64,000 nt of DNA from an uncultured Planctomycetota bacterium (GTDB taxonomy: Bacteria; Planctomycetota; Planctomycetia; Isosphaerales; Isosphaeraceae). The notes under the pieces were generated by a model that was not told the origin of the DNA, did no database searches, and saw only the letters and a list, made by a program, of their open reading frames with translations. The DNA lies in the NCBI GenBank assembly GCA_963823665.1, contig CAWGMQ010000010.1, forward strand, positions 736,001 through 800,000, read 5' to 3'. The position numbers and the translations under genes are program-made. The stretch's first letter is position 1. Every line of letters starts with the position of its first letter. Shown piece after piece: positions 1 through 30,300 of the stretch.

Positions 1-2
1 CG

Positions 3-823
3 AACCGGGGCACTGACTTTCTTATCCTGACACCCCTTCCAGAAGAGCGGGACGCTGTCCTCCGCTGCCTGGGGTCCTACCGTAAGCTACCGCCATCCGA
101 CGAAGACATTCGGGTCTACTACGAGTCGGATCTGGCAGCGATCTTCCCGGATGGATCGAGCACGACCTACCGGGTCGTGGTGACTCCGCTGCTCGGGATG
201 GGGCGGGTCGAAGCGGCGAACGCGACAGGGGACGCCGTCCGCCGCTGGCGGCCGCGTTACGTCCTCCTCGTGGGCATCGCGGGGGGCCTGGCCAAGGCGC
301 TCGTCGGGCTCGGCGACGTCCTCATCTCGGACCAAATCGTTGACTACGAGCTTCAGAAGCTGACAACCGAAACGACGACGATCCGCTGGCAGGTGTATCG
401 AGTCGACCCCCGTATGCTGGGGGCGGCGCAAAACGTGATTGGCGATGAGTGGCAAGAGCTCCTGGAGCACGAGCGACCAGGAGGCCGCGGCAAGCCCAAG
501 CAGCTCTTTGGCCCGATCTGCACCGGCGACAAAGTCATCGCCAACAGCCTGATCGACGAGTATCGCGAGGTGTGGAGCAAGTTAATCGGCGTCGAGATGG
601 AGGCCGGCGGCACAGCGAGCGCGGCGTTCCAGGCGGCCAACTCCCCCGGTTTCTTCATGATTCGCGGCGTGTCTGACCTTGCCGATGGGGCCAAGGACTC
701 GTCTGACGTGTTGAGCTGGCGCCGTACGCCTGCGATGTCGCTGCAGCGTACGCGGTCGCGCTCCTCCGGAGCGGACCAGTCCCGGCGTCTGGAAGACCGG
801 AGGCTACCGCAAACCCTCAGTAA
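3..823 (+). CDS. PNP_UDP_1 / MTA-SAH nucleosidase-family effector domain protein (5' end outside window; one probable indel at ~720)
   Basis: Frame open from nt 3 (DFLILTPLPEERDAVL). Motifs LLVGIAGG, GDVLIS, TGDKVI, GVEMEAGG, IRGVSDLAD. Restoring one C at ~721 gives the typical terminal helix WRPYACDVAAAYAVALL, ending ...ATANPQ* at TAA 821-823. Confidence 0.85.
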
Positions 824-858
824 GCCCACCGGCGGCCGAGGGCTTCACGCCGGTGGGC
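811..858 (+). other. Candidate -1 programmed ribosomal frameshift signal (slippery heptamer plus stimulatory stem-loop)
   Basis: A_AAC_CCT at 811-817 is an X_XXY_YYZ heptamer in the corrected PNP frame. It is followed by the spacer CAGTAA and a perfect stem, GCCCACCGGCG (824-834) / CGCCGGTGGGC (848-858). The -1 frame is open and continuous with ORF 853..3663. Confidence 0.7.
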
Positions 859-3663
859 GAGACACCTTTACCTTGGTCTGCCAGTAAACCTGGACGGAGC
901 CCGGCGCCGCCACCCGTAATTCACCCCGATGAAGGCACCGCCGTTGGTGACGATAGGGCGCAGCCAGCCCCGCTGCTACAAAACCTTCCCCACCAGCGCA
1001 ACCAGAACTTCACCGGCCGTGAAGACTTTCTGGCTCGGATGGCTGAATATTTTGCCACGGCGGACTCGACCGCCCGGAGGCTGGCACTGTGGGGATTGGG
1101 CGGGGTTGGCAAGACCCATATGGCCAACGAATATGCTTACAGACATCAATCGCGGTACCGCCTGATCTGGTGGGTTCGTTCCGAGGATCTGGGCACACTC
1201 TTCGATGACATCGCTGCACTTGCCGTCGCTCTCCAGTTGGCCGGAGCCGGTTTGCCCGAACGTTCGTCAATCGTCGAGGCCGTGCGGAACGCACTCGAGA
1301 TACGCCGCGAATGGCTGTTGATTTTCGACAACGCGGAGGTTCTAGACAACCTTTCCGAGATACTACCACGCCGCGGCGGTCATGTTCTCATCACGTCGCG
1401 CAACCCCAACTGGGGGGAATTAGCGACCGCGCGCCAAGTCCGGCAGTGGGATCGGCCGGAATCGATCGAGTTTCTGCGGAAGCGAACGTCCGACGAGGAT
1501 GACGCCGCCGCCGATGCCTTGGCGGAAGCCCTGGGCGACTTGCCGCTCGCGCTGGCGCAAGCATCTGCTTACATTGACAAAACAGGTACAACATACAAGC
1601 AGTATCTCGAACTTTTCCTCAGTCGTCGCCAAGACCTCTGGGGGAGGGAAGAGAAACCTCTCGGGTACAATGAAACGATCACAACAACCTGGAGTGTGGC
1701 GATCGGCGAAATTCGCCAGTCGAGACCACAAGCCGCTAAACTCCTCGGCATGTTCGCTAGATTCGGCTCCGGCTCGGTCGAAGACTATCGCTCGATCGCC
1801 AGCGATTTCGCAGGTGCTTTGTCTGACTTGATCACCTTCAACGATTCGATCGCGGCCCTCAGGTCCTTCTCGCTCATCGAACGAAACGGAGACCTGGTCT
1901 TTGTCCATCCACTTGTAAGGAAGGTCGTCTCCGACGGATTCGGCGAGAAATTTGACAAGCCGACACATTTGGACATGCCCGGTCCAGGTGAGCAAACGAA
2001 TTTGGCGATTGACACTGCACAGACATCGGGCCTCGATGCCGGCGGGCCCGATCTGGTGAATCGGGGCCGGGAGCCAGAGCCCATCGGTGCGGTCCAGCGG
2101 ACCAGAATGGGCGCGATCGTCACAACCAAGCTGGATTGCCCATATCCGCGGTGCACCTCGAACGGCGCACCGACGTTCAATCGCCTGCCAGGAGGGATCG
2201 GCCAGTGCCGAAGTTGCAATCGGTTGGTCGTGGAGTGTAGGGAGGAGGGCTGCCGGCGCTCAGGCACGTTCAACCGCCCTTTCGTGCGTCACTGCCGGCG
2301 CTGCGGTGAGAGAATCAATCAGACGGCACAGTGGGAGAAGGCTCGCTCCGACGGATGGGACCTTGTACCCCAGTCGGTCTCGCGTCCTGAGGTCATCGCC
2401 GATCTCTCCGGACTGGCGGACAACAGCTCGTCGGGAAGCGTTGCGATCGCGACGGCGATGGTGCGCGGGGCTTTGGCCGTTCACCACGCGGGCCGTTTCC
2501 TGGCCCTGCTCAGGGTCGTGCCGCTTGCGACCGGCAACCCGTTCCTCTGGGAGCTCGACCGCTATCCGTTCCCGGCTTTGCCTGATGGGTCCGATCCCGC
2601 TCCCTATCCGCCGAAGCTTCTTCCCGGCGAGCGGTATCTGGCTTATTCCTGCCCTCAAGGAGTGCTGGTGCTCGACCTCTGGAGTTGCCCAGGACTGTCG
2701 GCGAAGGACCTCGGTCCCCAATACCGGCTCATCCGGTGTCAGCGCCGTTCGCTCGCCGCAGCCCCGATCCCCCTGGATGAATCGCGGATCGGCCTTTTGA
2801 CCAGAGATCGGTCGGGCGACGGGCACTTCCGATGGGCCGTTTGGGATCTCTCGAACAAAGACTTGACCGACGCGGAGTTGTCGTCCCGTCTGGACTCCCG
2901 GGAGACCAAAGATCTCGGGCACCTGTCGTGGATACGCAAGAGCTGTCGAGCTGAGCTAGTTGACGACCGCGTGATCGTCTTCACGACGCCGCGAGCGCAG
3001 AGAATCTGGCGTATCGAAGACGCAATCGCCTCGCGTTTTGACATGCTGCTGACGATCTGGCCAAATCGCGCCACGAAACAGACCGACTCCATCATCCTCA
3101 ACGAGCACCACGACGATTGGGCATCCGTGGGACTGTCCAGCCACGCCTTTCTACTTGAACCAGGCGCCGTGCGGTTCTCGTGTGTTATTTGCGTCGAGCA
3201 AGATGACTCGACCAGCCCGGTACGTATCGAGGAATATGAAGTCGACTTCGACACCTTGCAAGCGAATGCGCCTCAATCGATGGGACATCGTTCGGGAGCC
3301 GTACCTATCGGTTTGGCGCCCAACCCGAACAAGGTCTCGCAAATGTATTTCCGCGTGGGGACCGAAATCTGGTCCCAGACCGACGGGCAGGGTACCAGCA
3401 TTTGCCTCGATGGCCTTCCAAAAGTCGTGGTCAGCCTCCGTCTCAGCGGCCCGCTGGTCACAAGCGTCGGCGAGAACGAAGAAGGGGAACGGTTCATCCA
3501 GATCGATTCGCTACGGCACAGGGGCGGGCATGCCGGCGTTCTCGTCGAGAACAGGCTTCTTTCCGAACCGTTACTCTGGTATCACTGGCTCTTTACGATC
3601 GAGATGGACGCTGAAAACCGTCTGCAGGCATGCCGTCGTATCGTGGCGTTTAACCAAGGCTAA
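853..3663 (+). CDS. NB-ARC/STAND NTPase with winged helix, Cys-rich Zn ribbons and a C-terminal beta-rich domain
   Basis: NLPHQRNQNFTGRE, Walker A GLGGVGKT, Walker B WLLIFDNAE, LITSR, GDLPLAL, VHPLVR. Then CPYPRC, CRSC, CREEGC, CRRCG and a ~450-aa beta-strand-rich tail. Confidence 0.85.
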   Translation: MGETPLPWSASKPGRSPAPPPVIHPDEGTAVGDDRAQPAPLLQNLPHQRNQNFTGREDFLARMAEYFATADSTARRLALWGLGGVGKTHMANEYAYRHQSRYRLIWWVRSEDLGTLFDDIAALAVALQLAGAGLPERSSIVEAVRNALEIRREWLLIFDNAEVLDNLSEILPRRGGHVLITSRNPNWGELATARQVRQWDRPESIEFLRKRTSDEDDAAADALAEALGDLPLALAQASAYIDKTGTTYKQYLELFLSRRQDLWGREEKPLGYNETITTTWSVAIGEIRQSRPQAAKLLGMFARFGSGSVEDYRSIASDFAGALSDLITFNDSIAALRSFSLIERNGDLVFVHPLVRKVVSDGFGEKFDKPTHLDMPGPGEQTNLAIDTAQTSGLDAGGPDLVNRGREPEPIGAVQRTRMGAIVTTKLDCPYPRCTSNGAPTFNRLPGGIGQCRSCNRLVVECREEGCRRSGTFNRPFVRHCRRCGERINQTAQWEKARSDGWDLVPQSVSRPEVIADLSGLADNSSSGSVAIATAMVRGALAVHHAGRFLALLRVVPLATGNPFLWELDRYPFPALPDGSDPAPYPPKLLPGERYLAYSCPQGVLVLDLWSCPGLSAKDLGPQYRLIRCQRRSLAAAPIPLDESRIGLLTRDRSGDGHFRWAVWDLSNKDLTDAELSSRLDSRETKDLGHLSWIRKSCRAELVDDRVIVFTTPRAQRIWRIEDAIASRFDMLLTIWPNRATKQTDSIILNEHHDDWASVGLSSHAFLLEPGAVRFSCVICVEQDDSTSPVRIEEYEVDFDTLQANAPQSMGHRSGAVPIGLAPNPNKVSQMYFRVGTEIWSQTDGQGTSICLDGLPKVVVSLRLSGPLVTSVGENEEGERFIQIDSLRHRGGHAGVLVENRLLSEPLLWYHWLFTIEMDAENRLQACRRIVAFNQG

Positions 3664-3666
3664 GAC

Positions 3667-4047
3667 ATGCCCGCTACCGATCCCAGTCCAATCCGGGAGT
3701 TGCTGAGCAATTTCGCAATCTTCCTTGCGGTCTCGGCGGTCGGCGGGTCTGTCTGGTATTTCGGGCTGTTCCGATGGTTGCTCCGTAAGAAAAACCCGGC
3801 TTGGCCGCTCGACGCCTGGAGGATTGCCTCCTGCGGCGCCTGGCTGACCGTCTGTGCCGCGCTACTCGTGTTCCGGGACCAGTTTTGCAAGGAGCTACTC
3901 ATTCCGCTGCTCACCCGCTTTGGTCTTCACCCCATATTGATATCATGGCTCCCGGTCGTGGTGGTTCTCCCTGTGATCGCGTTGGTCGGCCTGCTGGTGA
4001 TCTGGAACTTTCGCCGGGACGAGAGCAACCGCGCGAGGCCCGCCTGA
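3667..4047 (+). CDS. Small membrane protein (about 3 TM helices)
   Basis: Starts 3 nt after the previous stop; three hydrophobic stretches. Confidence 0.7.
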   Translation: MPATDPSPIRELLSNFAIFLAVSAVGGSVWYFGLFRWLLRKKNPAWPLDAWRIASCGAWLTVCAALLVFRDQFCKELLIPLLTRFGLHPILISWLPVVVVLPVIALVGLLVIWNFRRDESNRARPA

Positions 4048-4150
4048 CCGCCGGTGTCGCCCGCCGGGATTCGGCCCGAAGTGATTGGATCGTGCCATCC
4101 AGGAACTTTTCCTTCTTGCGAGTGGCCGTCCGCGGTAGCGCGAGGAGCAG

Positions 4151-7100
4151 TTGATGAGCGACGTCGAATCGAGGGTCACGTCCACCTCGAGGGGCGTCAT
4201 CCATGGGGATGAGACCCTCACAAAGCCCGTCCCCACAATCTTCATCGCCTTGGGGGGAGCGGTACAGACGTCGTCATGCGGCTGCGCAAGCGGTTCTTCG
4301 ACCGCTTTCACACCGCGGATCCGGGTCACGTCCGGTTTGTGTTTATCGATACCGACACGCAGAAGTCGGTTCCCAAAGGAGAGAATTCGGAGTTGTTCGA
4401 CGAACTCCAGCCCAGTCAGGAGGACCTGGTTTCCGCCCCTATCACCGCGGCTCAATTCCAACGCGTCTTCGCCGACCTGTGCGCAAGATCAACTGCGACC
4501 ACCTCACGTGGCTGAAACCTGAGCTCGAGCGGATCGGTCCCGAGGCTCTGGAGCACGGGGCCGGGACCCATCGGCAGTTTGGCCGCCTGGCGTTCTATCT
4601 CAATCATGTGCCGATCCGTCACACGATCGAGCGGCAGATCGCCGAGTCCCTGCGCTTTGCCGCCCTTAACCCCACCAAAGTCGCGGAGGATCGGATCGAA
4701 GTCGTGATCGTGATGACGCTGGCCGGCGGGACCGGGTCGGGGATGTTCATCGATGTGGCTTATCTGGTCCAGGATATCCTCGATCGGCCCACCTATCGCG
4801 CATGCAGAAGCAAGAGCGTCACCCTGATCGCCTTCCTTCCCGGCCTCTTCGACGCACACAGGGCGCTGTCGCAGCGATTCCGACAGAATGCGTTCGCCGC
4901 GCTCCTGGAACTCGAATACTACGGAACACCTCGCACGGGCGACGATCTGTTGCTGGGAGACGTTCGGCACGGTGCGCGACAGGAGCGTCACTGGACCGGC
5001 TTCATGGCCGACTGGGGCGATGGCAACAGGCGGTTCATCCGCGGCCCCGGCTGGGACACCTGCTTCCTGATCGACAACCGCAACGATCTCGATCCAAACG
5101 CCCCGTTGTCGGATCGCGACGTCTTCCAGATGGCGGCGGACTACCTGTTCCTCGACTTCGAGAACCATGAACTCGCCGTCGCCAAGCGATCGTCTCGCTC
5201 CAATATCGTTCAATTCAAGGACAAGGTCAAGGAGACGTGGGTGCGCCGGCCGGATAGCAGGGAGGCGGCGGGCGGCATCTTCGAGGGCAACTCCGTCTAC
5301 GCCACCCAGAACGGCTGCCGATTCAGCTCATTCGGGCTGGCCGAGATCTACTTCGACCTGGAAAAGCTCTACCAGGTCGCGGCATACCGACTCGCCGCAA
5401 TTCTGGTCCGATCCCGATGGCTCGGCAACGCCGACCAACACCCGGAGAGCCGGTACACGACTTGGATCAACGAACACCTGTTTCAGCCAAGAGACATACT
5501 GGACGAGGAAATTCCCCCTTCATTCCACCCCGAGCGACTGACACGCCAGTTACTGACGACTGCCTCCGGTTGCTGGCTCGACGACATCACGCGGGACATT
5601 GAGTCCTTGAGCAAGATCGAGCCGAAGGAGGGCCTCGATCGGATGCGCCGGCTCCTCGGCGCCCACGTGGAGCTGCTTCACAAGGCGGCCCCCGGAGATA
5701 TTGCGGCCGCCCGCCAGACGATCCAGGACAACCTGGTGCGGTTGAGTGGCGACGCGAAAACGCTGGGCTCGTTGCGCACGCGCCTTCGCGAGCTCGCCGC
5801 CAGGCATTGCGCGCTTCATGGCGTCTCCTCGACTCTGCGCTTGCTCGATGACATTGTCCGCGCTCTCTACGAGATCCGGGAACGCTCTCTCGCCCTGCCG
5901 GCAGGTCCAACCGACCACGATCTCCTGGCACGTCTTGTCGAAGCCCAGATGGTCCCCTGGCCGGTACACGACACCGCCGTGGCAACCGAATTCAGCCGAG
6001 CCCGTGACCTGATAGAAAAAGCGCTTCGACGCCGCTACGACCAGGCCGCCGGGATGGCGATCGACCGCATGCTCCTGGATGTTTGCCGGTACCTCCGTGC
6101 GCCGGCCCAACCCCCTTACCCCGAAGTGACGGTGCATGGCACATTGCATGCCTACTACAGACGGGCGCAAAGTTTCCTGAGAATGCTCGCCGAGCGCCTG
6201 GAAAAACGGTTCAAGTTGACCTACGGCTACGACCATTTCAAGGTGGCCCGCAGGCACTCGCTCGGCCCAAATTGGGATGAAGCCACCTTCGATAAACGGA
6301 TCGATGAGGCACTGGTGCTTCATCCCGAAATCAACAAGTCGGATGACGCGAACGACAAGTTCAGCTTCGACTGGAGCCGGTTCGAGGCTCTGGTCCTGCA
6401 AAACTTACGCAATTTGCACGGCGCCGGGATGGAGGTGGTGAAGGACGTCGATGATCTCATCAGGAACTGTTTCGAGAACGAGCGGGACAACACCGAAGGG
6501 ATCATCCAGGTCGCCGACTGGCTGGCGGACGCCTGCAAGGTCGTCCTCCACGGTGGCAAGGATGCCAGCGGCTTGCCTGCCGGCGGTTTCCAGCTCAGGG
6601 ACGAGGCAGACGGTAACGCCGTCGACCTGCTAGTCCGCCAGGCAGACTGGATGGAGATCCTTGACAGGATGGTCAAGGTGAGCATGCCGTACCTTCAGAC
6701 GACCGACCCGACCCGGATCTCGAACGATTTCTCTCCGGCCTACAGCAATCTCTACAGCCAGAAACAGGGAGAAACCAACACCAGGGTGAGCGAGAGGAAC
6801 GCCGCGCGGGTGTTCGAGAAAGTGCGGGAAATCGTTGCCTCCCGCGCACAGTACAGCGCCAGTTTGGCGCGCGCAATATCGCTCGCCCACTGGAGGCCGA
6901 GAACTCAAGGATCATCCTCGTCCGCGAGATGACCGGGTTTCCCCTCCAGTTCTACGCCCACCTGGACAGCCTGCGCGAGGCTTATGAGACCACCCCGAAC
7001 GTCACGCTCAAGAACGACGAGTGCCACATCAACTTCAAGGTAGCGAGTGAAGACCTCCCCGACATCACCCTGTTGGAGACGGATACCTATGCCCTGATTC

Positions 7101-7792
7101 GTGAGAACGTGTCGGTCGTGATCCGCGCGATCATCCTCCAGGCCATCAACTGGAGGGAGGGGATGCTGAAAGTGGCGGTGCCCGACAAGTATGGTACGGC
7201 AGGGATCGAGGTGCCGCTGGGCTCTCGCCTCCATCGGGCCATCAAGTACGCGTGCGAAAAAGACAGCGTCCGGCAGTATCTCGTCCGGTTCTGGAAGGAA
7301 TGGACAGACCGGGCCTTGCCCCACGACTGGGCGTCTCTGTACGCGTCGGGGCGAATGACTTGGACTGAGTTGAATCCCGAACGCGACATTCGGCAAGACG
7401 ACGTGTCTTCGCCGCTCCGCAATTGCTATGACAACCTCCTCGCACAGGCCAGTAAATGCTTGAAATCCACCGAGGAAGGCCAGCGATGGCTGCAGGATCT
7501 CCAGCCGTACGCCTTCTCGGAGCCGCCCCCCGCGGACCGTCTCGATGGTGCCAACACTCGTCCCCTGGCCGCCAGGTTTGTGCGAAGGTGCTTGAGGCGA
7601 CTCAACGCGGACCTGCCGATCTACCAGGTGATCGCCGACACGGTCCCCATGACGCTGGAGCAGGCCGCGATGGCCCACGATTGCATATGCGCGACGGAAA
7701 GGTTCCCCCTCGCGGTCTTCTGCGATGACGATCTGTTTTGCCCGCAATGTGGCGGACGCGTGAACGAGGAGTCCCAGCCCGCTCGAATTTGA
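4151..7792 (+). CDS. Large tubulin/FtsZ-like (Tubulin_2-type) GTPase with helical extension and C-terminal Zn ribbon; split by 3 probable indels (~4255, ~4482, ~6860)
   Basis: RBS GAGGAG. Reconstructed TIFIALGGSGTDVVMRLR (G-run one base short), FVFIDTD, GAGTHRQFGRLAF, tubulin signature LAGGTGSG, NAFAALLELE. The frame switch at ~6860 joins IILVREMTGFPL. C-terminal CIC...CPQCG. Confidence 0.85.
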
Positions 7793-8035
7793 ATCCGCTG
7801 CGAATGACCTGTCTTTGGCCGTGAGCACCGCCCGCACTTGGTTTCCTGCGATAGATCCATTGACAGGCGTTGAAGCGAGTGCGCAACTTTCCCGTAAACC
7901 GCGTGCCGAACACCTTAATAAGGCGTTTCCCTGCTTAAAAACGAAAGAGGCGCGTTCCGATCGGCCGATAACTGGGGGCGTGGGTGCCGAAGAGGGCAGA
8001 GGGATGCCATCGTGAATTGATCGGAAGGAAGCGCG

Positions 8036-9553
8036 ATGACGGCGGATTCGGCGATTGTCAAAGAGGGTAGCGCTGGGGAGAAGGGGGACGCCGAGAGCGT
8101 CGTCGAGATGCTGCTCCGGGTGGCTGGGAGCGCGCATTATTTCCGTTCGAGCGATGGCGGCGTGCACGCTCGGGTGCGGGTGGGGAACCGGCACGAGACA
8201 TACCGGCTGAAATCGCTGGAATTCACCGACTGGCTGATCGAGAGTTACCGACGTGAGCGGGTCGACCTGCCGCCACCGACTGCGGTTGTGCGCGTTGTGA
8301 GGGCGGTTGAGGCTCGAGCGCGGTTTGATGGTGGCACGCGGTTGTCTTACGTGCGGGTGGGGCGTGGGGGCGACGGCGATGGCGGGGGGACGGAGAGTTA
8401 CATCGACCTGGGTGATTCCAGCGGTCAGGCGGTGAGGATCAGCGCGCGGGAATGGTCGGTGGTGGATCGACCGCCGGTGCATTTTCGTCGGCCACCGGGG
8501 TTGTTATCGCTCCCTTTTCCAGCGCGGGGCGGCTCGATCGAGCTGCTGCGGCGTTATGTCAACGTGACCGAGCCGGATTTTCGACTGTTGATTGGCTGGA
8601 TGGCGGCTGCGCTCTTACCGGACGGACCTTACCCGGTTCTCGTGGTTCATGGGGAGCAGGGATCGGCCAAGACGACGCTGGCGAAGGTGATCGGTTGCTT
8701 GATCGACCCGCAGGCTGCGCCGTTGCTCGCGGAGCCGCGGAGCACGCGTGACCTTATTGTGACCGCAGCAAACGGATGGCTGCTGGTTTATGACAACCTC
8801 AGCGTGGTTCCGAACTGGTTATCGGATGGTCTGTGCCGGCTTGCGACCGGCGGAGGTTTGGCGGGCCGGGCGCTCTGGTCGAACAACGAGCGGAGTGTGC
8901 TGCAAGCCCGACAGCCGACCATCTTGAACGGCATCGACGAATTCGTATGCCGTCAGGATCTGGCCGACCGCTGTCTCTTTGTGTATTTGCCGCCGATCGC
9001 CGGCGCAAACCGGCGAGTCGAGGGCGATCTGTGGCGTGAGTTTCAAGCGGAAGCTCCGGTGATCCTGGGAGGACTGCTGGACGCGATCATGGGCGGGCTG
9101 GCGGTGCTTCCGTCGGTGCGGCCGCCCGAGCTGCCGCGGATGGCGGATTTTGCATGCCTGGGGGAGGCAATCGGGCGCGGGCTGGGCTGGCCGGAGGGGA
9201 CTTTTCTGACGGCCTACAGCGATAACCGCCGCGCCGCGACGGTTGCGTCGCTCGAGGATTCGCTGATTGTCGCCGCATTGTTCGAGAGGGCGCAATGGGG
9301 CGAGCTCGACAACTGGACGTGCTCCGCGAGCGAGATGCTGGAACAGCTCGCCGCACGAGTCTCCCCTAAAGTCAAGGCATCCGTTCGCTGGCCGAAGACG
9401 CCGCGCTCGCTGGCCGATGAGCTGCGCCGGGTTGGCCCGCAGCTTCGGATGCGCGGGATATCCGTGACGTTCACGCGAACGGCCGAGAATCGCCTGATCA
9501 CGATCGATGCGGCCGCGGCGGCAGATTTTTCGAGGGTCCCAGGCCGAAGTTGA
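8036..9553 (+). CDS. P-loop ATPase resembling the helicase/ATPase half of MGE primase-helicases
   Basis: Walker A GEQGSAKTT, LLVYDNLS, LCRLATGG, ILNGI, DLADR, PRMADF. No primase domain recognised. Confidence 0.75.
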   Translation: MTADSAIVKEGSAGEKGDAESVVEMLLRVAGSAHYFRSSDGGVHARVRVGNRHETYRLKSLEFTDWLIESYRRERVDLPPPTAVVRVVRAVEARARFDGGTRLSYVRVGRGGDGDGGGTESYIDLGDSSGQAVRISAREWSVVDRPPVHFRRPPGLLSLPFPARGGSIELLRRYVNVTEPDFRLLIGWMAAALLPDGPYPVLVVHGEQGSAKTTLAKVIGCLIDPQAAPLLAEPRSTRDLIVTAANGWLLVYDNLSVVPNWLSDGLCRLATGGGLAGRALWSNNERSVLQARQPTILNGIDEFVCRQDLADRCLFVYLPPIAGANRRVEGDLWREFQAEAPVILGGLLDAIMGGLAVLPSVRPPELPRMADFACLGEAIGRGLGWPEGTFLTAYSDNRRAATVASLEDSLIVAALFERAQWGELDNWTCSASEMLEQLAARVSPKVKASVRWPKTPRSLADELRRVGPQLRMRGISVTFTRTAENRLITIDAAAAADFSRVPGRS

Positions 9554-9634
9554 GCGGGCCCGGCGTTCGGGCATGAGGCTCAGGCAGATCGAGCGAGAGT
9601 GTAGACGACGAGCTCCGACAAGCAGGAGGACTCG

Positions 9635-10654
9635 ATGGGCTGGACGTCTTTTGATACCACGAAGGCTTGGCTCGTGGGCAACATGAAGAGAAGGTTCGAG
9701 AGCCGGCGAGGGACCGCGGCTCGCCCCCCAGACTTGAAGTTCGTCAGTGAAGTGCTGCGCGAGCTGCTTCCCGCGAAGCAGTTCGAGGCGATCTGGAAGA
9801 GGGTCGAGGATTGGGATCGTCGCGCGCAGCCGTGCGAACTGGCGGATGATATCTTCACCTACTTGATTGTTGGCGAAGCCAAGCGCTTCGAACACATCAA
9901 GGGTATCCGAGATCGTTCCTTTGCCGAATATCAGCGGGAAGTGGCTTCACGCGGAGACGACGAGGCCTACAGACTCGCGGCGCGGCTGGTCACGGGACTT
10001 GACGAGCTTTGTCTCCCTGGGCGCGGGTGCACTGCCCCGGCGGAAGGGGCACCTGCTCCAGGCTCAGGGGCGATCGATGTGACGAACAGCCCGGGGTGGC
10101 TCGTGCAACAGCTCGAGTCGACCGCGCCGGGGTGCGAGTGGCTGCTCAGGGCGTGGGCGCAGGTTCGCGAGTGCTTGCAGGAGTCGCGTTTGTGGTGGTT
10201 CAACGAAGGCAGCTTCAGGGTAATCCGGCTGCTGGGTAAAGAGCCGCGCGACGCGCTCGAAGGGACTCTGGTCGCCGAGATCTTTCTGGCGAGCCACGCG
10301 GTCGATCGGTGCAGCAGGAACCCGTTCTCGTTGCTGCGGGGCCAAGCGAGCCTCGACGAGGTGAATGACCTGCTGCGGCGGCTAGGGCCGCGCGTGAAAT
10401 CGTCCGTCGATACAAGCGACAAAGAGCAGGGGCGCCAAACGCTGCTTGCAATCGTGGAGCAGGCGATCGCCCGGCTCCAGGCGAGAGCCAGAGAGCACGT
10501 CGAACGTGCAAGCGGCGATGAGGCGACGATCGCAGTCCAGCGCGCGTTCGATGCCTCGCCCCGGGGGCAAGACGTCGAGGAATGCAAGCGCCGCGTTAAA
10601 GAGCGCGTCAAACACACAATCGCTACAATGCGGCAGCTCGGGGGTAAAAAATGA
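9635..10654 (+). CDS. Hypothetical helical protein (LESTAPGCEWLLRAW type)
   Basis: 339-aa ORF with RBS GGAGG; its C-terminal third recurs at 14103-14454. Confidence 0.65.
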   Translation: MGWTSFDTTKAWLVGNMKRRFESRRGTAARPPDLKFVSEVLRELLPAKQFEAIWKRVEDWDRRAQPCELADDIFTYLIVGEAKRFEHIKGIRDRSFAEYQREVASRGDDEAYRLAARLVTGLDELCLPGRGCTAPAEGAPAPGSGAIDVTNSPGWLVQQLESTAPGCEWLLRAWAQVRECLQESRLWWFNEGSFRVIRLLGKEPRDALEGTLVAEIFLASHAVDRCSRNPFSLLRGQASLDEVNDLLRRLGPRVKSSVDTSDKEQGRQTLLAIVEQAIARLQARAREHVERASGDEATIAVQRAFDASPRGQDVEECKRRVKERVKHTIATMRQLGGKK

Positions 10655-10806: not shown

Positions 10807-13800
10807 ATGGCTGCCGTCGCCGCGGATCGAGAGCTGCTGTTCGGACTTCTGGCCCTCCAGAACGGGATCATCAACCAGGGGCAACTCCTGGCCGCCTTCC
10901 AGGCGTGGACCCTCGAGAGATCGAAGGGCCTGGCCGACCATCTCGTGGCACTCGGGCATTTAACCCCCGCGCGGCGGCCGATCGTCGAAGCGATGGCGGC
11001 ACTCCACCTGGAAGCCCACGGCGGCGATGTCGAGAAGAGCCTGGCCGCCGTCCCGTCAAACAGGGGGACCCGCGATGGGCTGGCGAGCCTCAAGGAGCCC
11101 CAGATCGAGGCGACGCTGACCCGCGTCGGCCGCATCTGCTTTGATCAAGCGACCGATCGCGACGGGCAAGACAGCAATGCCGACAGCACGGTCGGCCTCT
11201 CGCTGGGTGCTTCGACCAGCGACGGCCAGCGGTTTCGCGTGCTCCGGCCGCACGCCCGCGGCGGGCTGGGCGAGGTCTTCGTCGCGCTCGATTCCGAGCT
11301 CAATCGCGAGGTCGCGCTCAAGCACATCCTCGAGAGGCACGCCGACGATCCGTTCAGCCGCAAGCGGTTCGTCGCCGAGGCCGAGATCACCGGCAGCCTG
11401 GAACATCCCGGGGTCGTGCCCGTGTACGGGCTGGGCACGTACGCCGACGGCCGGCCCTACTACGCCATGCGGTTCATCCGCTGCGACAGTCTCAAGGAAG
11501 CGATCGGCCGCTATCACGGCGATGAAACCCTCAAGAACGATCCCGGCAAGCGCTCGCTGGCCCTGCGCAAGCTGCTGCGCCGGTTCCTGGACGTCTGCAA
11601 CGCCGTCGACTACTCGCACAGCCGCGGCGTCATCCACCGTGACATCAAGCCGGCCAACATCATCCTGGGCCAGCACGGCGAGACGCTGGTCGTCGATTGG
11701 GGGCTGGCCAAATCGGTCGGGCGGGCCGATCCGACCGTCGGCGAGCAGACGATTGCTCCGTCCTCCTCGGGCCGGTCGTCGGAGACCCTTCCCGGAAGTG
11801 TCCTGGGAACGCCGGCCTACATGAGCCCCGAGCAGGCCGCCGGCGTGCTGGAGAAGCTCGGCCCGCGGTCCGACGTCTATAGCCTGGGCGCCACGCTCTA
11901 TTGCCTTCTGACCGGCAAGCCGCCGTTCGAGAATGAAGACCTTGGCGCCATGCTCCGCGCCGTGCAGGCCGGCGATTTCGCCCGGCCGGCGGAGCGCGGC
12001 CCGGCGCCGACCGGGCGCTCGAGGCCATCTGCCTGAAGGCCATGGCGCTGGAGCCGCAGGACCGCTACCCGACCGCGCGGGCCCTGGCAGACGACCTGGA
12101 GCGGTGGATGGCCGACGAGCCGGTCTCGGCCTGGCGTGAGCCGCTCTCGCGGCGATTGCGGCGGTGGTCGCGGCGGAACCGCACGGCCGTGACCGCCGCG
12201 GTCGTGGCGTTGCTTGCGGCGCTGGCGGGCCTGGGGGCCGTGGCCGCCGTGCAGGCGAAGGCCAACGGCGAATTGTATGCGCTCACCGGCCGGCTGGAGC
12301 GAGCCAACGCCGAGTTGTTCGACGAGAAGTCCCGCGTGCAAGAGCGGTTCGACGTGGCGATGGACGCGATCCGGACCTTCCACACGGGCGTGAGCGAGGA
12401 CTTCCTGCTCAGGGAGGAGCAATTCAAGGGCCTGCGCGACAAGCTCCTGAAGTCGGCGGCCGACTTCTACGGCAAGCTGGGCGGGCTTCTGAAGCAGCAG
12501 ACCGACCTCGCGTCGCGGCGGGCACTGGCGCAGGCCGAGTTCGAGCTGGCCGAGCTGACGGCGAAGGTCGGCGACTCGAAGCAGGCGCTGGATCGGCACC
12601 GCGAGGCGCTCTCGCTGCGCGAGGCGCTGGCTGCCGAGCCGCGGGCCGACGCCGAGACGCAGGCCGAGGCGGCGCGGAGCGTACTGGCGGTGGGGCGGGC
12701 AGAGCGCGTCATCGGCAAGACGACCGAGGCCGAGGCATCCTTCCGGTCGGCCCACGAGCGGCTGGCAAAACTCGTGGAGGCAGATCCCGGAGCCGATGAC
12801 CACCGCGCCGAGCTGGCATCGGTTGTGTGGCACCTGGGATCCTTGTTGAGGGATAACGGGCGGTATCCCGAGGCGCTGGCCTGGCTGGAGCGATCGCGCA
12901 ACGCGCGGGAGGCGCTTGCCGCGGCCGAGCCCTCAAATGCGCTCCGGCAGCTCGAGCTGGCAAGAAGCCTCCGCATCCTGGCCGATACGTTGGGCGGGCT
13001 CGGTCGGATGTCGGAATCGCTGGAATCCGGCCGTCGCGCCGTGGCGATCCTCGAGCGGCTGGTCGCGGCCGACCCTGCCGCGACCGAAACTCGCTTCGAG
13101 CTGTGTGCGAGCCAGTACACCGTGGGACAGCGACTGGGCATTGTGGGGCAGACCGCGGCGGCGCTGGAAACGTACGGGCGCATGCGAGAGAACGCGCGCC
13201 GCCTGGTGGAGGACAACCCTGCGGTCGCCTCGTTCCAGTATGCCCTGGCGAGGGCCTATCACGGCACCGGAAACTACCTCCACTCGGCCGGCCGGGAGGC
13301 GGAGGCCGTGGAGGCGCTCGGTCACGCGCTGGAGGTGTTTCGGAAGCTCGTCCGCGACCACCCGTCGGTCTATGATTATTGCCGGCGTCTGGCCGATATG
13401 TACGCCAACGTCGGCGAGTCCCTGGCCAACTTGGGCCGGCCGGTCGAGGGGCTGGAGTCGGCCCGCGAGGGCCTCAAGGTCGCACGCGAGCTGTTGGCCT
13501 CAAACCCGGAGATGACCAACTCCCGCTACTGTCTGGGCCACGCCCTCAATGGGGTGGGGCGGGCCGAGGCGCGGCTGGGCCGCCGCGCCGAGGCGGCGGC
13601 TACGTTCCGCGAGGCGATCGGAATCTATGAGGCCATCCCCGAGCCGGTGCGTAGTGCGGTCGTCCGCTACAACCTGGCATGCAGCCATTCCCAGCTCTCG
13701 GGCGTGCTGGCCGGTTCAAGCGCCGAGGGCGACGCGCTGCGCGGGCCGAGGCCGACCGGGCGATGGCGTCCCTGCGCGACGCAGTCGCCCACGGCTACCG

Positions 13801-13912
13801 TAACCTGCCCGGCCTGCGGACCGACCCCGACCTCAACGTTATCCGCCCCCGGCCCGACTTCCAGCTCCTGCTCCTTGACCTGTCCTTCCCCACCCAGCCG
13901 TTCGCGCCCTGA
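10807..13912 (+). CDS. Ser/Thr protein kinase with TPR repeats (probable indels at ~12005 and ~13740)
   Basis: N-terminus AADRELLFGLLALQNG; ARGGLGEV, VALK, HRDIKPAN, DWGLAK, GTPAYMSPEQ, DVYSLG. Shifted frames give DRALEAICLKAMA and the tail DPDLNVIRPRPDFQLLLLDLSFPTQPFAP*. Confidence 0.9.
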
Positions 13913-14102
13913 GCGGCAAGCCCGGAGTTTGTGGATCGGCCGATTCTCATGGCGAGCATTTTCGATGCACACCGCGGGCCGTCGGCCCCGATCCGTTCGC
14001 CGCTGGGATCCGACGCCTCGTCCGTCGACCCCGCACGCCGTTCCCAAGCGAATACCGCCCTCAGGCCTCGGTCGAAAAGGACAGGCATCGCCCCGTTGAC
14101 AC

Positions 14103-24099: not shown

Positions 24100-24370
24100 G
24101 GTGTGCTCCCTGGCGTGCAAGAGGAATGTTCTTCACGCAGTTTAGCCGTCAAAAAGCCTTCAGACAACCGGGAATGCCTGATCGGTATTTTCGGCGCATG
24201 GGTGTGACCCATAGTGAACTGGTCTTGCAGGACTATAAGATAGAGGCCACTTCGCGCCTTGGGGAGCTTCGGTGGCTGACGAGAAAGTCGTTGACGACAA
24301 GGCTGTGCTCATTGCACTGGTGCACGAGGGCGGGTTGCATCGGGCGATACAACGAAGAGGGTTCAACGCG

Positions 24371-27300
24371 ATGTCTGCGTCACGCCGTAGGGTGGAGGGT
24401 GCTCGTAGTCGACTTCGGAAATCGTCCGGCATGGGGCGAGCCGGTCGAGTGCGATCGCCGTGGGTGGAAACGCTTGAAGATCGGCGGTTGCTCGCGGGGC
24501 TGCAATTCACCGGGGCGCTGGGCGAGCAATCGACACTCGACTCGGTGGTCCAGACCGAGAATGAGGTGGCGAATCTGAACACGCCGGCGTCACAGCAATT
24601 CACGCACAATGATGGCACGGCGTACTCCAACGTAACGTTGACGACTGCGGCCTCCACGACAGGCAATCCTGGCGTAAACCTCGACATCCAGTCGCAGGGA
24701 GGCGTTCGGAAGAACGGCATCGCGAGCGTATCGGTGAACTCGGGTCTGACAGACGCGAGCGGCGCGATCGGGCCGACCATCAATGTTCCGGTCACGATCG
24801 TGGCGACTGATCCCGACGAAGAAACGGGCGACCCGGTTACCGTGCAGTTCGCCTTTGTCTTCAACGTCAAGACATTAGCCTCAAATAACGCTACGGCGAG
24901 TTTCACATACGCCGCGAGCTATACTTACAACGGGACGACCACGCCTCTCGCCTCACAGGTTGACAATCTGGGCGGCAGCGGAATCACGCCGATCGGGTCG
25001 GGACCGACGGATGACGAGACGGGAACCCTTGATGCCAAGATCGGCGATTCCTTCACGCTTTCGTTTTCGGAGAGCCTCGGCGGGCAGACCATAGCGCCGT
25101 TTCTCGGCGCGGGCGTTAATAATGTGGGATGGCTCGTTGATATGAACCTGGATGTGAGCCTCGTGCCCGAGCCGACGATCGTTCCAACATCCGTTTCATG
25201 GGATCACTCGTCCACCGCCGGTATTGACTTCGACTACGGTGTCAGCGGCGAACCGACGACCTCGCCCACTCCGTTCGCGCTTTACTGGGCAAGTGGCGAG
25301 AATTACCCGAGCGATGTGGTAGGATCGCCCATAAACCTCGTCCCAACTGTGAATACGATCCCGGCTGGACAAGTCGCCCAGGCCGCGCCTTACGGACCGA
25401 TCCACGTGGTTGGGTCGGTGTTGACCGGCGCGCCCGCGGACGCCAATTACCTGCTCGTCGTGATTGATCCGGACAACACGCTCGGGACGTTCGACCCGAC
25501 AGCCAACACAAAGGCCCTCGAGATCGATCAGGATGTTCCACTTGTGCTTCAGTACCAGGGCGCCTGGGCCAATCCCGATCAGCCAACATACATGGACGAT
25601 ACCGGTCATACGGTCCGGGGTTCGGGCTGCGGCTTGACGTCGCTTGTGATGGCCCTCGACTTCGCGGGCGTACAAACGGATCCGGGCACGCTCAACAGTG
25701 AATTGACCGGCACCAACGGCTACGTCGGCGACGCTCAGTTGAACTGGGGGCCGGCGACTTCGATCGCGGCTTCAGCGGCCGGGTCTTCCGGCGCGGCCAT
25801 CCACTGGAACACTGCATGGGGCATGACGAGCGATCAAGATTTACGCAATCTACTCACGACGACATCCGAACCGATCATCGTACATGTTTACAACCCACAT
25901 GCGCCGGACGCCACGCACCCGAACACATGGTACACGAATCACTTTGTCCTGGTCACGGGAATTGATGGTGACACGTTCTGGATCAACGATCCGGCGGGCA
26001 ACTCAGAAACCCTCGATTACTACGGCGATGACTTCGAGACCCGCGGCTATGTGTCGGATCCGACCAGCGACTTGAGCGCGCTTTATGTCGCAGCCGCGTC
26101 CACGGGCACGGGAGTGAATCTGGCCGTCGGCGACGCGCAGGGCCTGGTTACGGGAATTCCGTCCGGAGGGACGCAGCCTCTCAACCAGATTCCGAATGCG
26201 GTTTACTTCACCGAAGGGCCGCTGGAAGATCTCACGGGGGAAGACCCTGGCACAACCGGGGCGCAGTTCGTGTATATCTCGCAACCTGGGACGGGGACGT
26301 TCGAGATCCAGGGAAGCGGGACAACAGGACAGTCGCAGGTAGAATTTGCTGGCGTCGCGACCAACGGCGCGATCCAGTCGCAGCAGTCTTTATCCCTTCA
26401 AAGTGCCGATGGCAACCCATTTCAGCTTGCTGTGGACGTCGGCCCAACCTATAGCGTCGCGGCCAGTAACGCCCCGCTTGCCGCGAGCTTCTCCACCGTC
26501 TCCGCCAGCGGAACTCGTGCCGGCACGGCGAGCCTGTCGGCAATCCTGACGTCGGACGGCTTGCCGGTGGCGGGCCGCACCGTGGATTTCACGCTTGACG
26601 AGGGGGGGGTTATCACGCTAATCGGCTCAGCCGTGACCGATATGGGCGGCGCTGCGACAATGACAGGCGGGAGCCTGGCCGGCTTCAATGTCGGCATTTT
26701 CGCGGATGACGTCGAGGCCAGCTTCGCCGGCGACGCGACGTACGAGAGCGCCAGCGCCTCAGGTGCGCTCACCGTCTTGCCCCAGGCCGTTGATCAACTC
26801 GCGCTCTGCTCCTCGGCGAATCCCAGCCTTCCCGGCGAGCTGATGACCTTTGGCGTGCTGGCCATCCCGTTAAGCGGTGGTCTGACGCCGACCGGTACAA
26901 TCCAGTTCCAGATCGACGGCAACGACTTCGGGTCGCCTGTTCCACTATCAGGGGGCGCCGCCACCAGCGGGCTCGTCACGTCGCTTTCGGTCGGCTCGCA
27001 TTCGATCGCAGCCATTTACTCCGGCGACTCCACCTACCCCAGCAGCACGGCGACGCTCACGCAAACAGTTGAGAGCCCGGCCGCGGTAACGGGCCGCGTC
27101 TACACGGTCACTTCGCTGGGCGACACGGGGACCGGCTCAGGAACATCGGGCGACCTTCGCTTCGCGATCACCCAGGCCAACGCCAACCCCGGCAGCGTGA
27201 TCGATTTCAGTGTCATGGGGACGATTCAACTGGCGCAGGCCCTACCGGACGTCGACGCCAACATGACCATCAACGGCCCCGGGGCGTCTCTGGTTACGCT

Positions 27301-30300
27301 AAAGGGCGGCGGCGCCTCATCGAACTTCAGCGGCCTGCTCGTGGATCGCGGGGTGACGGCCACGCTCTCCGGCCTGACCATCACAGGCGCAAACGCGACC
27401 TACGGTGGCGGCATTGATGACGCTGGCACGTTGACTCTCTCCGACGCCACCGTGTCCGGCAACTCCGCGACGTCCGAAGGCGCAGGAATCAACATGGCTG
27501 GATACGAGGAAACGTTGACGCTGTCCGACTGCACCATCTCTGACAACACGATCGCCACGAACGGTGCCGGCGGCGGAGTCAAGGGGTCCGGCGCTGGGGT
27601 GACGGTGACGGACAGCGTCATTTCTGGAAACTCTTGCGGCGAGGGCGGAGGCTTTATCACGAGCCAGGGCACCTCGCTGACGATATCCTACAGCCTGATT
27701 TCCCAGAACACGGCCGAGGAAGGAGTCGGCGGCGGCATCGCGGGTTCGCCGACGCTCTTGGACTGCTCGTTGACCGGCAACACAGCCGTGCAAGGCGGAG
27801 CCATCGATGGTGGCACGGCGAGCTTGACGAACTGCACCTTGTCGGGAAACAGCACCATCTTTCCGGGGAACAGCAGGGCGGGAGGCCCTGGTGGCGCCCT
27901 CCACATGAGCGGCGGAACGCTGACCGACTGCACCTTCCTCGATAACTCAGTAGGAACCAACGAGAATGGCGGGGCCATCAACGGCGGCGCATGGACGATC
28001 GACGGTTGTGCCTTCATGGGCAACACGTCGGAATCCGGCGGCGGCGCCATATGGACGGAGAGCCCGATGTCCCTCACCGACTGTGCAATCACGGGGAACT
28101 CGGCCGTCAACGGCGGCGGCATTTTCAGCGGTGCCGGCCAGAGCTTTAACGGATACAAGGGCTACGTGACCCCGGGCGCTTTTTCGCTCACCGACTGCAT
28201 CATCGCCGGAAACTCGGCCACGGCCTCCGGAGGCGGCATCTTCAACATCGGCGGGATGACGCTGACCAATTGCACCGTCTCCGGCAATTCGGCCGCCAAC
28301 GGCGGCGGCATCGCCGATATTTCCTTATACCATCCACCCCCTGTGCCTTATCCGTTTCCCGTTGAATCGGCGCTCGTCGATTGCACTGTCTCTGGGAACT
28401 CGGCCACGTCCGACGGTGGCGGCATCCTGAACCAGGGGACGTTGACACTCACCGACAGCACCGTCTCCGGTAACTCGGCCGCTCTAGGCGGCGGCATCTT
28501 CAACGCGATTTACCCCGTCGCCCCTGACCAGACAACAACCATCACCGGAACTTCCGTCACGGCAAACACAGCCACGAAGTACGGCGGTGGCATCATGAAC
28601 GAGGGGACGCTCGCAGTGACGAGCTGCACCATTTCCGGCAACACGGCGACTCAAGACGGCGGTGGGCTGGCCAACCTGTCCCTGTTTTTCTTCTACCCCG
28701 GCGGCGGCGCGCCATCGAGCGCGCCCGCTGCGGCAGCCGTTGCCGACAGCACCCTCTATGGCAACACCAGCCTTTCCGGAGGCGCCGTCGTCAATGAGGA
28801 CGCCAAGCTGACCCTGACGAACGCCACCATCACTGGCAACCGCACTACCGACAGTGGGCCTTACGGCGCCGCTCTCGAAACAATCAAGTACCCCGGTGAT
28901 ATCCTGATTACCAACACCCTGATCGCCGGAAACACCAAGGGCGCCAGCCCAAGCACGACGCCCGGCGACGTGGCAGGCACACTCGATGCGAAGAGCTCCA
29001 ACAACCTGATCGGCGACGGCGATCTCTTGAGCGGCATCAGCAATCAATCCCAGGGCAACCAGATCGGCTCCGCGAGCGCCGGCACGGTCATCGACCCCAC
29101 GCTGGGAGCGCTCGGCAACAACGGCGGCCCGACGGAGACCGTCCCTCTGCTTGCCGGCAGCACCGCGATCAACGCCGGGAACAATTTGCTTGCCATCGAT
29201 CCCACGACGCAACAAACACTTACCTGGGACCAGCGTGGTCCAGGCTACGCGCGGATCGTCGGAGGCACCGTCGACATCGGGGCATTCGAATACGGGGCAG
29301 TTCTGATAACCCCGAAGCAGTTGGTCGCGACTCCCACGGCCCCCGCTTCGGTCATAGCCGGTGCGACGTTCAGCTTGACCGTCACAGCCGAAGACTCAAG
29401 CGGCAACACGGCCCTCGCGTTTGATGCCCCCGTCACCGTAGCGATCACCAACGGGCCCACCGGCGCGACGCTGGGTGGCAATCCCACCGCGACCGCCTCG
29501 CTGGGCGTGGCGAAGCTCACCGGCTTGAGCTTCAGTCAGCTCGGCTCGTACACACTCTCCGTCTCCGGCGGTGGACTATCCGGCTCGATCGGTCCGATCC
29601 AGGTCACGGCCGGTTCGGCCGTCCAGCTTGTGCTCACAACCGACCCACCGAGTCAGGTGTTTGCCAATGAGAGCTTTCAAGTCGTCGTCGCGGCCGAAGA
29701 TTCCTTGGGGTTCGTCAACACGTCCTACACAGGCACCGCGACGGTGGCCTTGATCAGCAACCCCGGGCCTGCCGCACTTGGCGGCATGCTGAGCGCTCCG
29801 TTTAACGCCGGTGTCGCCACGTTCAATCCGCTGACGTTGAACTTCGCGGATGACGGCTATATCTTGCAGATCACGAGCGGCACTCTCGTCCCGGCGACGA
29901 GCGGCGACGTCGACGTCACGGCCCAGCCGGTTTTGCCACTGGTTCCAGACGCACCCGTGCTGGCGCCGCAGAGCGACACCGGCGTGGGTAGCTCCGATGG
30001 ACTGACGCGAGATAATGGCTCGAGCGCGGCGCCGCTCTATTTCACCGTCTCCGGCGTCAACCCCGCCAACAGCTTCGTCCAGATTTACAACGATAGCAAT
30101 CCCGGCGACCCGGTCCCGCTCGGCAGTCGCGTCGCGGCCGTGGGCAGCGCCGCCACGATCACCCTGAGCGGTGCAGCTCTGCCGGATGGCACCTATCAGA
30201 TTGCCGACGCCGCGTCATTAACTTCCGGAGGGGCGCTGAGCGCCCTGTCGGGTACGACCGCGATAACGATCCAGTCGAGCCTGACCATCACCGCCACCAA

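Follow-up and report, generated by a model that had tools for sequence, protein, structure and literature searches.

What is a giant tubulin-like protein doing beside an NLR-like NTPase and a nucleoside-cleaving enzyme? The question is raised by four co-oriented genes on the + strand at the left end of a 64,000-nucleotide stretch of DNA (the window) from an uncultured Planctomycetota bacterium of the Isosphaeraceae (GenBank assembly GCA_963823665.1, contig CAWGMQ010000010.1, positions 736,001 to 800,000; G000:C10:736001-800000 in our naming). The genome, G000, comprises 16.46 Mb in 12 contigs and is 91.9% complete; positions below are those of the window, with negative numbers for nucleotides to the left of its start. 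Open reading frame (ORF) calls and Pfam matches agree with the original prediction, made from the letters of the sequence, that the four genes encode a PNP nucleosidase, an NB-ARC protein with Zn ribbons, a protein with three transmembrane (TM) segments, and a tubulin-like protein. Judged from their sequences, they appear to combine two known kinds of locus in a new form, namely a cassette built around the tubulin-like FtsZl1 family and a STAND protein of the PNP-NB-ARC type. The reading we favor, with a confidence that stops somewhat short of even, is that the block is an accessory NLR-like (STAND) abortive-infection or conflict module built on an FtsZl1 cassette.

The NB-ARC-propeller fusion

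The second gene (853..3663, + strand) encodes P0002, a STAND protein of 936 aa in which a linker, an NB-ARC NTPase, two Zn ribbons, and a predicted beta-propeller follow one another. The NB-ARC module (residues 48-365; 994..1950, + strand) matches NF040586 (FxSxx_TPR) at 3e-83 over profile positions 3-333 of 830, with 280.7 bits that miss the cut-off of 300, and the Pfam NB-ARC model is reached at 23.7 bits versus a cut-off of 23.5. The stretches GGVGKT (within GLGGVGKT), LLIFD (within LLIFDNA), and GDLPLAL are intact, and we take them to be Walker A, Walker B, and the GxP/GLPL motif, respectively. The module is 41 to 47% identical to a large family with the architecture TIR_2/PNP/HNH-NB-ARC-DUF7779-TPR. 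Among the best 120 of its 2,226 matches, which were the ones considered, two belong to the window's own clade, and all but a few of the other 118 carry TPR families. In P0002, where Pfam finds none of the TPR families, subunit A of the FtsZl1 cassette stands in their place: residues ~420-936 are homologous to a stand-alone protein, A, of about 510 to 650 aa as called in the loci that carry it.

How is subunit A built? A model of window residues 417-936 made with AlphaFold2 (AF2) from a 16-row alignment (pLDDT 84.1, pTM 0.88) has an all-beta domain behind two Zn ribbons, and the top Foldseek matches in the PDB, with E values of about 3e-9, are the WD40 propellers of UAF1, Fbw7/Cdc4, the eight-bladed designed protein Tako8, and the Apaf-1 apoptosome (5juy_A). 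The double Zn ribbon (2137..2304, + strand) has eight conserved cysteines; in alignment A2 of 16 sequences, C36, C39, C46, C51, C65, and C68 are invariant, while C13 and C18 are kept in at least 90%. The domain behind it (2362..3660, + strand) is the one modeled as a propeller, and the whole of subunit A is thus predicted to be a double-Zn-ribbon WD40-like beta-propeller. Because of this fold, the joining of NB-ARC and propeller would give the layout of Apaf-1-type STANDs. A DO-GTPase identity for gene A was considered and ruled out, as the protein folds as a propeller by both model and Foldseek; the lead that the Protein Atlas offered for A, PQQ_2 at 0.76, was weak.

Could the fusion be an artefact of assembly? 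Short-read contigs from four soil-metagenome runs (two studies) were aligned to window positions 1-8000, and one of them covers the junction of NB-ARC and propeller (2007-2157) with zero differences. The junction is also spanned, in other assemblies, by P0086, which differs in one residue, and by P0087, which is 70% identical. P0088 (66% identical) stands alone and begins right at the Zn ribbon. A protein search with the A profile over 1.84 billion representatives found 160 representatives of the A family; almost all of the full-length matches begin at the Zn ribbon, and a long N-terminal extension occurs only in the window's clade and in P0248. The fusion is genuine.

In front of the STAND gene lies the PNP_UDP_1-family nucleosidase, a predicted effector (1..823 in the window, ORF 3..887, + strand). 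It matches Pfam PF01048 at 4.9e-15 (56 bits versus a cut-off of 25.1), as well as the PADLOC models PDC-M60C (5.9e-22) and "Effector PN-superfamily" (9.2e-16), and it contains the motifs GIAGG, VEMEAGG, and RGVSD, the latter two presumably catalytic, as in MTA/SAH nucleosidases. P0139 and P0211, both among the listed NB-ARC relatives, join PNP_UDP_1, NB-ARC, and TPR in one chain and are colinear with the window, including a PHQRN-NFTGRE lead-in; their linker has ~19 residues versus ~74 in the window. The nucleosidase would thereby sit in the effector position of the PNP-NB-ARC-TPR STAND layout. The likeness to the NF040586 STAND family consists in the NB-ARC module, this lead-in, and PNP in the same N-terminal position, whereas the window differs from that family in lacking TPRs, in having Zn ribbons and a propeller in the sensor position, and in staying below the profile's cut-off.

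The cassette in related genomes

What does subunit A normally accompany? To the window's locus we compared 159 FtsZl1 loci (L numbers) taken from genome and metagenome collections, many of them truncated. The usual cassette consists of A, the Zn-ribbon beta-propeller; B, a small membrane protein; C, FtsZl1; and D, a giant Hsp70-like protein. A lies directly upstream of a full-length FtsZl1 of the window's clade in 10 of the 10 loci with enough upstream sequence to assess it (L004-L008, L010, L083-L085, and L088). In the window, B is a protein of 126 aa (3667..4047, + strand) with three TM segments by hydropathy (12-35, 51-69, and 85-117). Its homologues are found by tblastn between A and FtsZl1 in L004 and L005, and small TM-rich ORFs occupy the same position in L006, L008, L083, L088, and L010. 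D, of ~1,050 to 1,130 aa, is present in all nine assessable loci, downstream of FtsZl1 except in L083, where it lies upstream in the same locus. The consensus of its alignment, A3, includes AIDFGN-NSY, D-GGGS-DTA, GGD--FGGDNVT, and VL-G-G-RLPLV, which we take to be the phosphate-1, phosphate-2, and adenosine motifs of the Hsp70/actin fold. The D member of L088 matches Pfam HSP70 at 7.5e-8, D adjoins an HSP70-bearing cluster in the Protein Atlas (0.93), and a motif scan of the D proteins found no Walker A; these features support the assignment of D as probably Hsp70-like.

In the window, D is represented by a remnant. The last ~41 codons of the FtsZl1 ORF (7670..7792, + strand) are not FtsZl1: this tail, ...CICATERFPLAVFCDDDLFCPQCGGRV, resembles the start of D in L084, L083, L005, and L004 and agrees with the N-terminal Zn-ribbon consensus of alignment A3. 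Of D, only this Zn ribbon survives, read in frame as the final part of the FtsZl1 ORF. The two genes downstream (8036..9553 and 9635..10654) were considered as a diverged D and rejected, having no similarity to it and being kept next to the sulfatase gene in the sister genome.

How far does the association reach? Profile searches over the 159 loci found D-like ORFs in 44, usually directly after FtsZl1, and A-like ORFs in 24, where the matches often span the Zn ribbons alone. Related gene pairs also adjoin distant FtsZl1 genes, in loci recorded under several phyla, and the pairing thus extends beyond Planctomycetota. Directly upstream of A, the content varies. L005 has a gene with TIR_2 (1.3e-8) and a partial Pkinase domain, the product of which also matches the PADLOC models for the PD-T4-6 kinase and ThsB-type TIR, and L006 has an LRR protein. 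The TIR_2 and partial-kinase gene of L005 suggests that the effector-type modules upstream of A are swappable.

Other genes beside the cassette can be mentioned here. In L083 (14658..20451) and L084 (481..6407), genes for a ~900-aa TPR protein, a GrpE-like protein, and an Hsp70-like protein of ordinary size accompany it in differing order, the two ordinary-size Hsp70 copies being 50% identical. Weakly related proteins of ~400 aa without a Pfam match are encoded directly upstream of A in L008 (1926..3146), L010 (6396..7547), and L084 (6417..7664); their N termini look like GIDLGT, an actin/Hsp70-fold phosphate-1 motif.

Is the window's block a unit? A genome of the same genus, G001 (16.1 Mb), answers this directly. 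Two of its positions only 38 nucleotides apart, G001:C4:1211788 and G001:C4:1211826, correspond to window positions -609 and 7911, respectively. The accessory block (about -608 to 7910, + strand), ~8.5 kb in length, is therefore a clean presence/absence difference that holds exactly the four genes. The original prediction expected that more genes may lie to the left of the window; what lies there is only the first 12 to 45 codons of PNP, which starts at an ATG at -33 or a GTG at -132, and the next gene upstream is the sulfatase gene, conserved in the sister genome. On the right, 8036..9553 and 9635..10654 are native neighbors, 80% identical in G001. Base composition fails to mark the block as foreign (GC 0.618 versus 0.607 and 0.662 in the flanks), and a scan for promoters and terminators gave counts equal to the shuffle level.

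The surroundings hold some repeated sequences of their own. The two downstream genes (8036..10654) match no Pfam, PADLOC, or NCBIfam family. The first has a P-loop, GEQGSAKT, and its DNA (8036..9553) has several copies of ~68 to 70% identity in the sister genome, so that this gene is possibly a member of a repeated or mobile family. About 6.7 kb to the left of the window (L002 7233..7332), a repeat of ~90 nucleotides has dozens of copies, 80 to 97% identical, on the various contigs of the sister genome; some of them form a tandem array with a spacing of ~41 nucleotides (G001:C4:696943-697273).

The cassette is also rare. A query with the window's A part as a single protein found A in 1 of 61 relatives, the window's own genome. 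The A2 profile (E<=1e-10) detected A in 5 of the family's 121 genomes, the window's own included; two of the five give fragments or Zn-ribbon matches, while full matches come from the genomes that carry L004 and L005. Of 401 genomes sampled from the phylum, two have A, namely the window's own and that of L010. Does the bacterium use its tubulin-like protein to divide? PF00091, the tubulin/FtsZ family, has no match in the genome, while a control search matched in 13 of 14 genomes. With a cassette so rare and patchy, a block dispensable within the genus, and a genome without canonical FtsZ or tubulin, a housekeeping or division role is very unlikely, in agreement with the original prediction as regards division.

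Reading frames of the tubulin-like gene and the nucleosidase

The third member of the cassette, FtsZl1 or Tubulin_2 (4154..7792, + strand), raises a question of its own, because it is not one ORF as assembled. Two tubulin-like ORFs are called, 4203..6932 and 6929..7792 (+ strand). The first matches Pfam PF13809 at 1.5e-39 (136.7 bits versus a cut-off of 27) over profile positions 99-355, and positions 5-91 of the profile fall in the preceding frame piece (31.6 bits). The tubulin signature GGTGSG is present in LAGGTGSGMFIDVAY, reading LAGGTGSGMF in P0004, and LGGSGTD at 4249-4269 in frame +1 is the GGxG loop. We take these to be the GTP-binding loops T4 and T1 of FtsZl1, respectively. Full-length homologues of ~1,190 aa, 57 to 67% identical over the whole length, align at 4154-4261, 4249-4488, 4485-6869, and 6866-7645, that is, in four successive frames, each shift being -1. 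The shifts lie in a G6 run, in AGATC, and in the stretch GCGCGCGC; the deletions are at about 4251-4257, 4483-4487, and 6868.

Is this a pseudogene? That state was considered first and then dropped. The short contigs cover all three sites, and at each of them they carry one extra base: +G at 4251 (contig X1), +C at 4483 (X2), and +G at 6868 (X2). Each site is covered by a single contig at a depth of 2.5 to 3.2, and the sample of origin may be among the runs. The only other difference is a T>C at 4480 (X2), with no further indels listed in the covered parts, and chance is implausible because all three contig insertions coincide with frame breaks. The three 1-nucleotide deletions are thus most likely assembly errors, and since the contigs restore all three frames, the gene is intact in the sequenced population, encoding ~1,213 aa from 4154 to 7792. 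The ~1,200-aa protein of the original prediction therefore holds in substance, though not as a single ORF of the assembly.

The 67% homologue P0007 was folded in place of the window protein itself (41-row alignment, pLDDT 85.7). Its N-terminal ~400 residues align by Foldseek with CetZ, FtsZ, TubZ, and tubulins, the best E value being 6.6e-6 (CetZ2) and the TM scores by target against CetZ, FtsZ, and tubulin a modest 0.42 to 0.46. The remaining ~790 residues are mostly helical in the model, with a mixed C-terminal part. On this model and the profile match, gene C is placed in the FtsZl1 family with a predicted tubulin/FtsZ fold. It is the single Tubulin_2 gene of its genome.

The PNP ORF has an apparent frame change as well. 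Near 717-730, it shifts by -1 from frame 0 to frame 2, beyond which frame 2 reads as a plausible PNP C terminus (…PYACDVAAAYAVALL…) up to a stop at 821-823. Is PNP a separate upstream gene, with its stop at 821 and the STAND gene starting at the GTG at 853, or an N-terminal fusion masked by assembly errors? Our guess is divided roughly evenly between the two.

Frame breaks are found elsewhere in the window too, consistent with a long-read assembly that keeps residual 1-nucleotide deletions. At 10807..14099, the ORF of a Ser/Thr kinase matches Pkinase only at positions 9-201 of 263 and abuts a TPR ORF in another frame, so that this kinase-TPR gene is probably split by another 1-nucleotide assembly deletion; its DNA has more than 25 matches of 66 to 74% identity elsewhere in the sister genome. 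At 53411..54408, a PAS/HisKA ORF breaks off at HisKA position 31 of 66 and shares an overlap with the following ORF, which is in a different frame; this is likely a further assembly break. An ORF of 2,330 aa with Peptidase_C39_2 and Big_3_5 domains (24272..31264) is intact despite these errors.

What might the block do?

FtsZl1 (Tubulin_2, PF13809) was described by Makarova and Koonin in 2010, who proposed a role in membrane remodelling and reported vWA, kinase, GTPase, and OmpA neighbors (PMC2875224). Additional file 5 of the same work contains a DnaK-like giant neighbor of FtsZl1, amb2961. The planctomycete members named in the parts of the supplement considered are annotated as Ser/Thr kinases, and PMC9871819 attributes an N-terminal kinase domain to planctomycete members. 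Gene C resembles this family in its tubulin signature, its long C-terminal region unlike that of FtsZ, and its membrane-associated, lineage-specific neighbors. In contrast, the window's clade is without the kinase, and neither the A-B-C-D cassette nor the NB-ARC/PNP graft appears in the passages of PMC2875224 considered here.

A second body of work has the flavor of what is seen here. Kaur, Burroughs, Iyer, and Aravind (2020) predicted conflict systems of a DO-GTPase and GAP1 with tubulin, HSP70/GrpE, and kinase-Zn-ribbon-beta-rich themes and with PNPase and TIR effectors, the tubulin theme being stated to be restricted to firmicutes and actinobacteria (PMC7159879). The tubulin homologue, Hsp70- and GrpE-like proteins, Zn ribbons, TM components, and PNPase or TIR effectors are shared with the loci described here, but the switch in the window's block is an NB-ARC STAND. 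A motif scan of the block and of the scanned cassette proteins found no DO-GTPase, and NB-ARC is the only P-loop protein of the window's block; the lone Walker A-like match upstream of a cassette is a C-terminal GSNNKGKT in L008. The order of effector, NOD, and beta-propeller is also that of Apaf-1/Avs-type STANDs, and 5juy_A is among the Foldseek matches. Unlike in those proteins, the effector may be a separate gene, the propeller has no sequence relationship to theirs, and the linkage to a tubulin-like gene is a feature of the window, not of them. A literature search retrieved no paper linking Tubulin_2/FtsZl1 to NB-ARC or STAND proteins (the supplements of PMC7159879, which may list planctomycete loci, lay outside the search) and no experimental study of FtsZl1 function.

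How would a conflict module of this composition work? The genes and their domain architecture, the fusion, the rarity, and the presence/absence difference are observed; the functional steps that follow are all inferred. Subunit A, fused behind an NB-ARC of the TIR/PNP-NB-ARC-TPR family, would take the place of the TPR sensor, and PNP would take that of the effector. The propeller and its Zn ribbons may sense the state of a membrane-located FtsZl1/B assembly, or else a foreign factor that disturbs this assembly. NB-ARC would then oligomerize, and the clustered PNP domains would cleave nucleosides or nucleotides, arresting the infected cell. The conflict system of the original prediction draws strength from a block that is discrete and rare, from a PNP and NB-ARC pair that is colinear with STAND proteins, and from a relative with a TIR-kinase gene in the same upstream position; its choice of partners fares less well, the usual companions of FtsZl1 being A, B, and D rather than PNP and NB-ARC.

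Several observations weigh against this conflict reading. The co-occurrence of Tubulin_2 with PNP_UDP_1 and NB-ARC, which had been put forward as a check, is found in 0 of the 159 other FtsZl1 loci, where tblastn (E<=1e-5) detects nothing related to the PNP or NB-ARC part of the window. All nine assessable related loci have D, whereas only about 40 codons from its start remain in the window, and a search of the 91.9%-complete genome with the D of L005 found no full D. With D truncated and not found elsewhere in the genome, the window's cassette is missing a component and may be a relic. The PNP ORF has an apparent frame change within bins 268-1068, over which no contig lies. The block edges bear no hallmarks of a mobile element: they have no convincing direct, inverted, or terminal repeats, and there are no tRNA genes from -4000 to 12000, a range that spans both edges. 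PADLOC-DB v2 recognizes no system, with 0 families matched by P0002-P0005, P0007, and the relatives' A, B, D, and E; in this check, which the original prediction had recommended, the PNP protein matches effector models and no core protein matches any model. Finally, the formation of canonical filaments by FtsZl1 has been doubted (PMC2875224).

Might the truncated D mean that the block is simply decaying? It could be an inert relic or chimera, left when a PNP-NB-ARC-TPR gene recombined with an FtsZl1 cassette and D was deleted, and the truncation at the right block edge is the main argument for decay, joined by the PNP frame change near 717-730 and the absence of the block from the same-genus genome. 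We consider this unlikely, however: another assembly retains the fusion in a protein 70% identical, the contigs contradict all three tubulin frameshifts, and the catalytic and NTP-binding motifs are kept. The same truncation would also fit a self-contained STAND defence protein, in which PNP and the NB-ARC-propeller, already a complete STAND layout, act alone, like an Apaf-1- or Avs-type sensor that has picked up a propeller by chance, and the TM and FtsZl1 genes are vestigial passengers, the truncated D suggesting that the cassette part decays. This, too, is rather improbable, given that B and FtsZl1 have intact ORFs if the assembly deletions are disregarded, that FtsZl1 is 57 to 67% identical to its full-length homologues throughout, and that the assembly with the fusion P0087 also has an FtsZl1 fragment, P0012, the contigs of the two having the same reported length (1,218,524).

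A different answer would be a cell-biological machine in which FtsZl1 and its partners remodel membranes, with NB-ARC as a signalling regulator and PNP as a metabolic nucleosidase. Membrane remodelling is the hypothesis in print for FtsZl1 (PMC2875224), B is a membrane protein, and actin/Hsp70-fold and GrpE-like genes lie beside the cassette in L083 and L084. Nonetheless, such a machine seems quite unlikely for a cassette that is extremely patchy and a block that is dispensable within the genus; TIR and PNP are typical nucleotide-degrading effector domains, and the NB-ARC family carries TIR, PNP, or HNH at its N termini.

Returning to the conflict reading, can it be extended from the window's block to the cassette as a whole? 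It is possible, though doubtful, that the A-B-C-D cassette is a cytoskeleton-based immune system in which D would be a Zn-ribbon Hsp70-like ATPase and the propeller the sensor, wired either to the tubulin- and Hsp70-like assembly or to an NLR-type switch and a nucleotide-depleting PNP. Within such a system, the window's fusion could, again tentatively, be a "Rosetta stone" that reveals the propeller as a sensor.

Overall, FtsZl1 has been known since 2010, with membrane remodelling (2010) and conflict (2020) as its printed hypotheses. The block described here is a compact four-gene unit in which the apparent pseudogene state of the tubulin-like gene is traced, most likely, to an assembly artefact. 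Its natural fusion puts the cassette's propeller in an NLR-like sensor position beside a PNP nucleosidase, which gives a direct, testable argument for the conflict reading and points to the propeller as the subunit most likely to do the sensing. A rare, dispensable block that couples this nucleosidase and an NLR-type switch protein to elements of a tubulin-like cassette hints that cassettes of this kind may serve microbial conflict rather than cell division.

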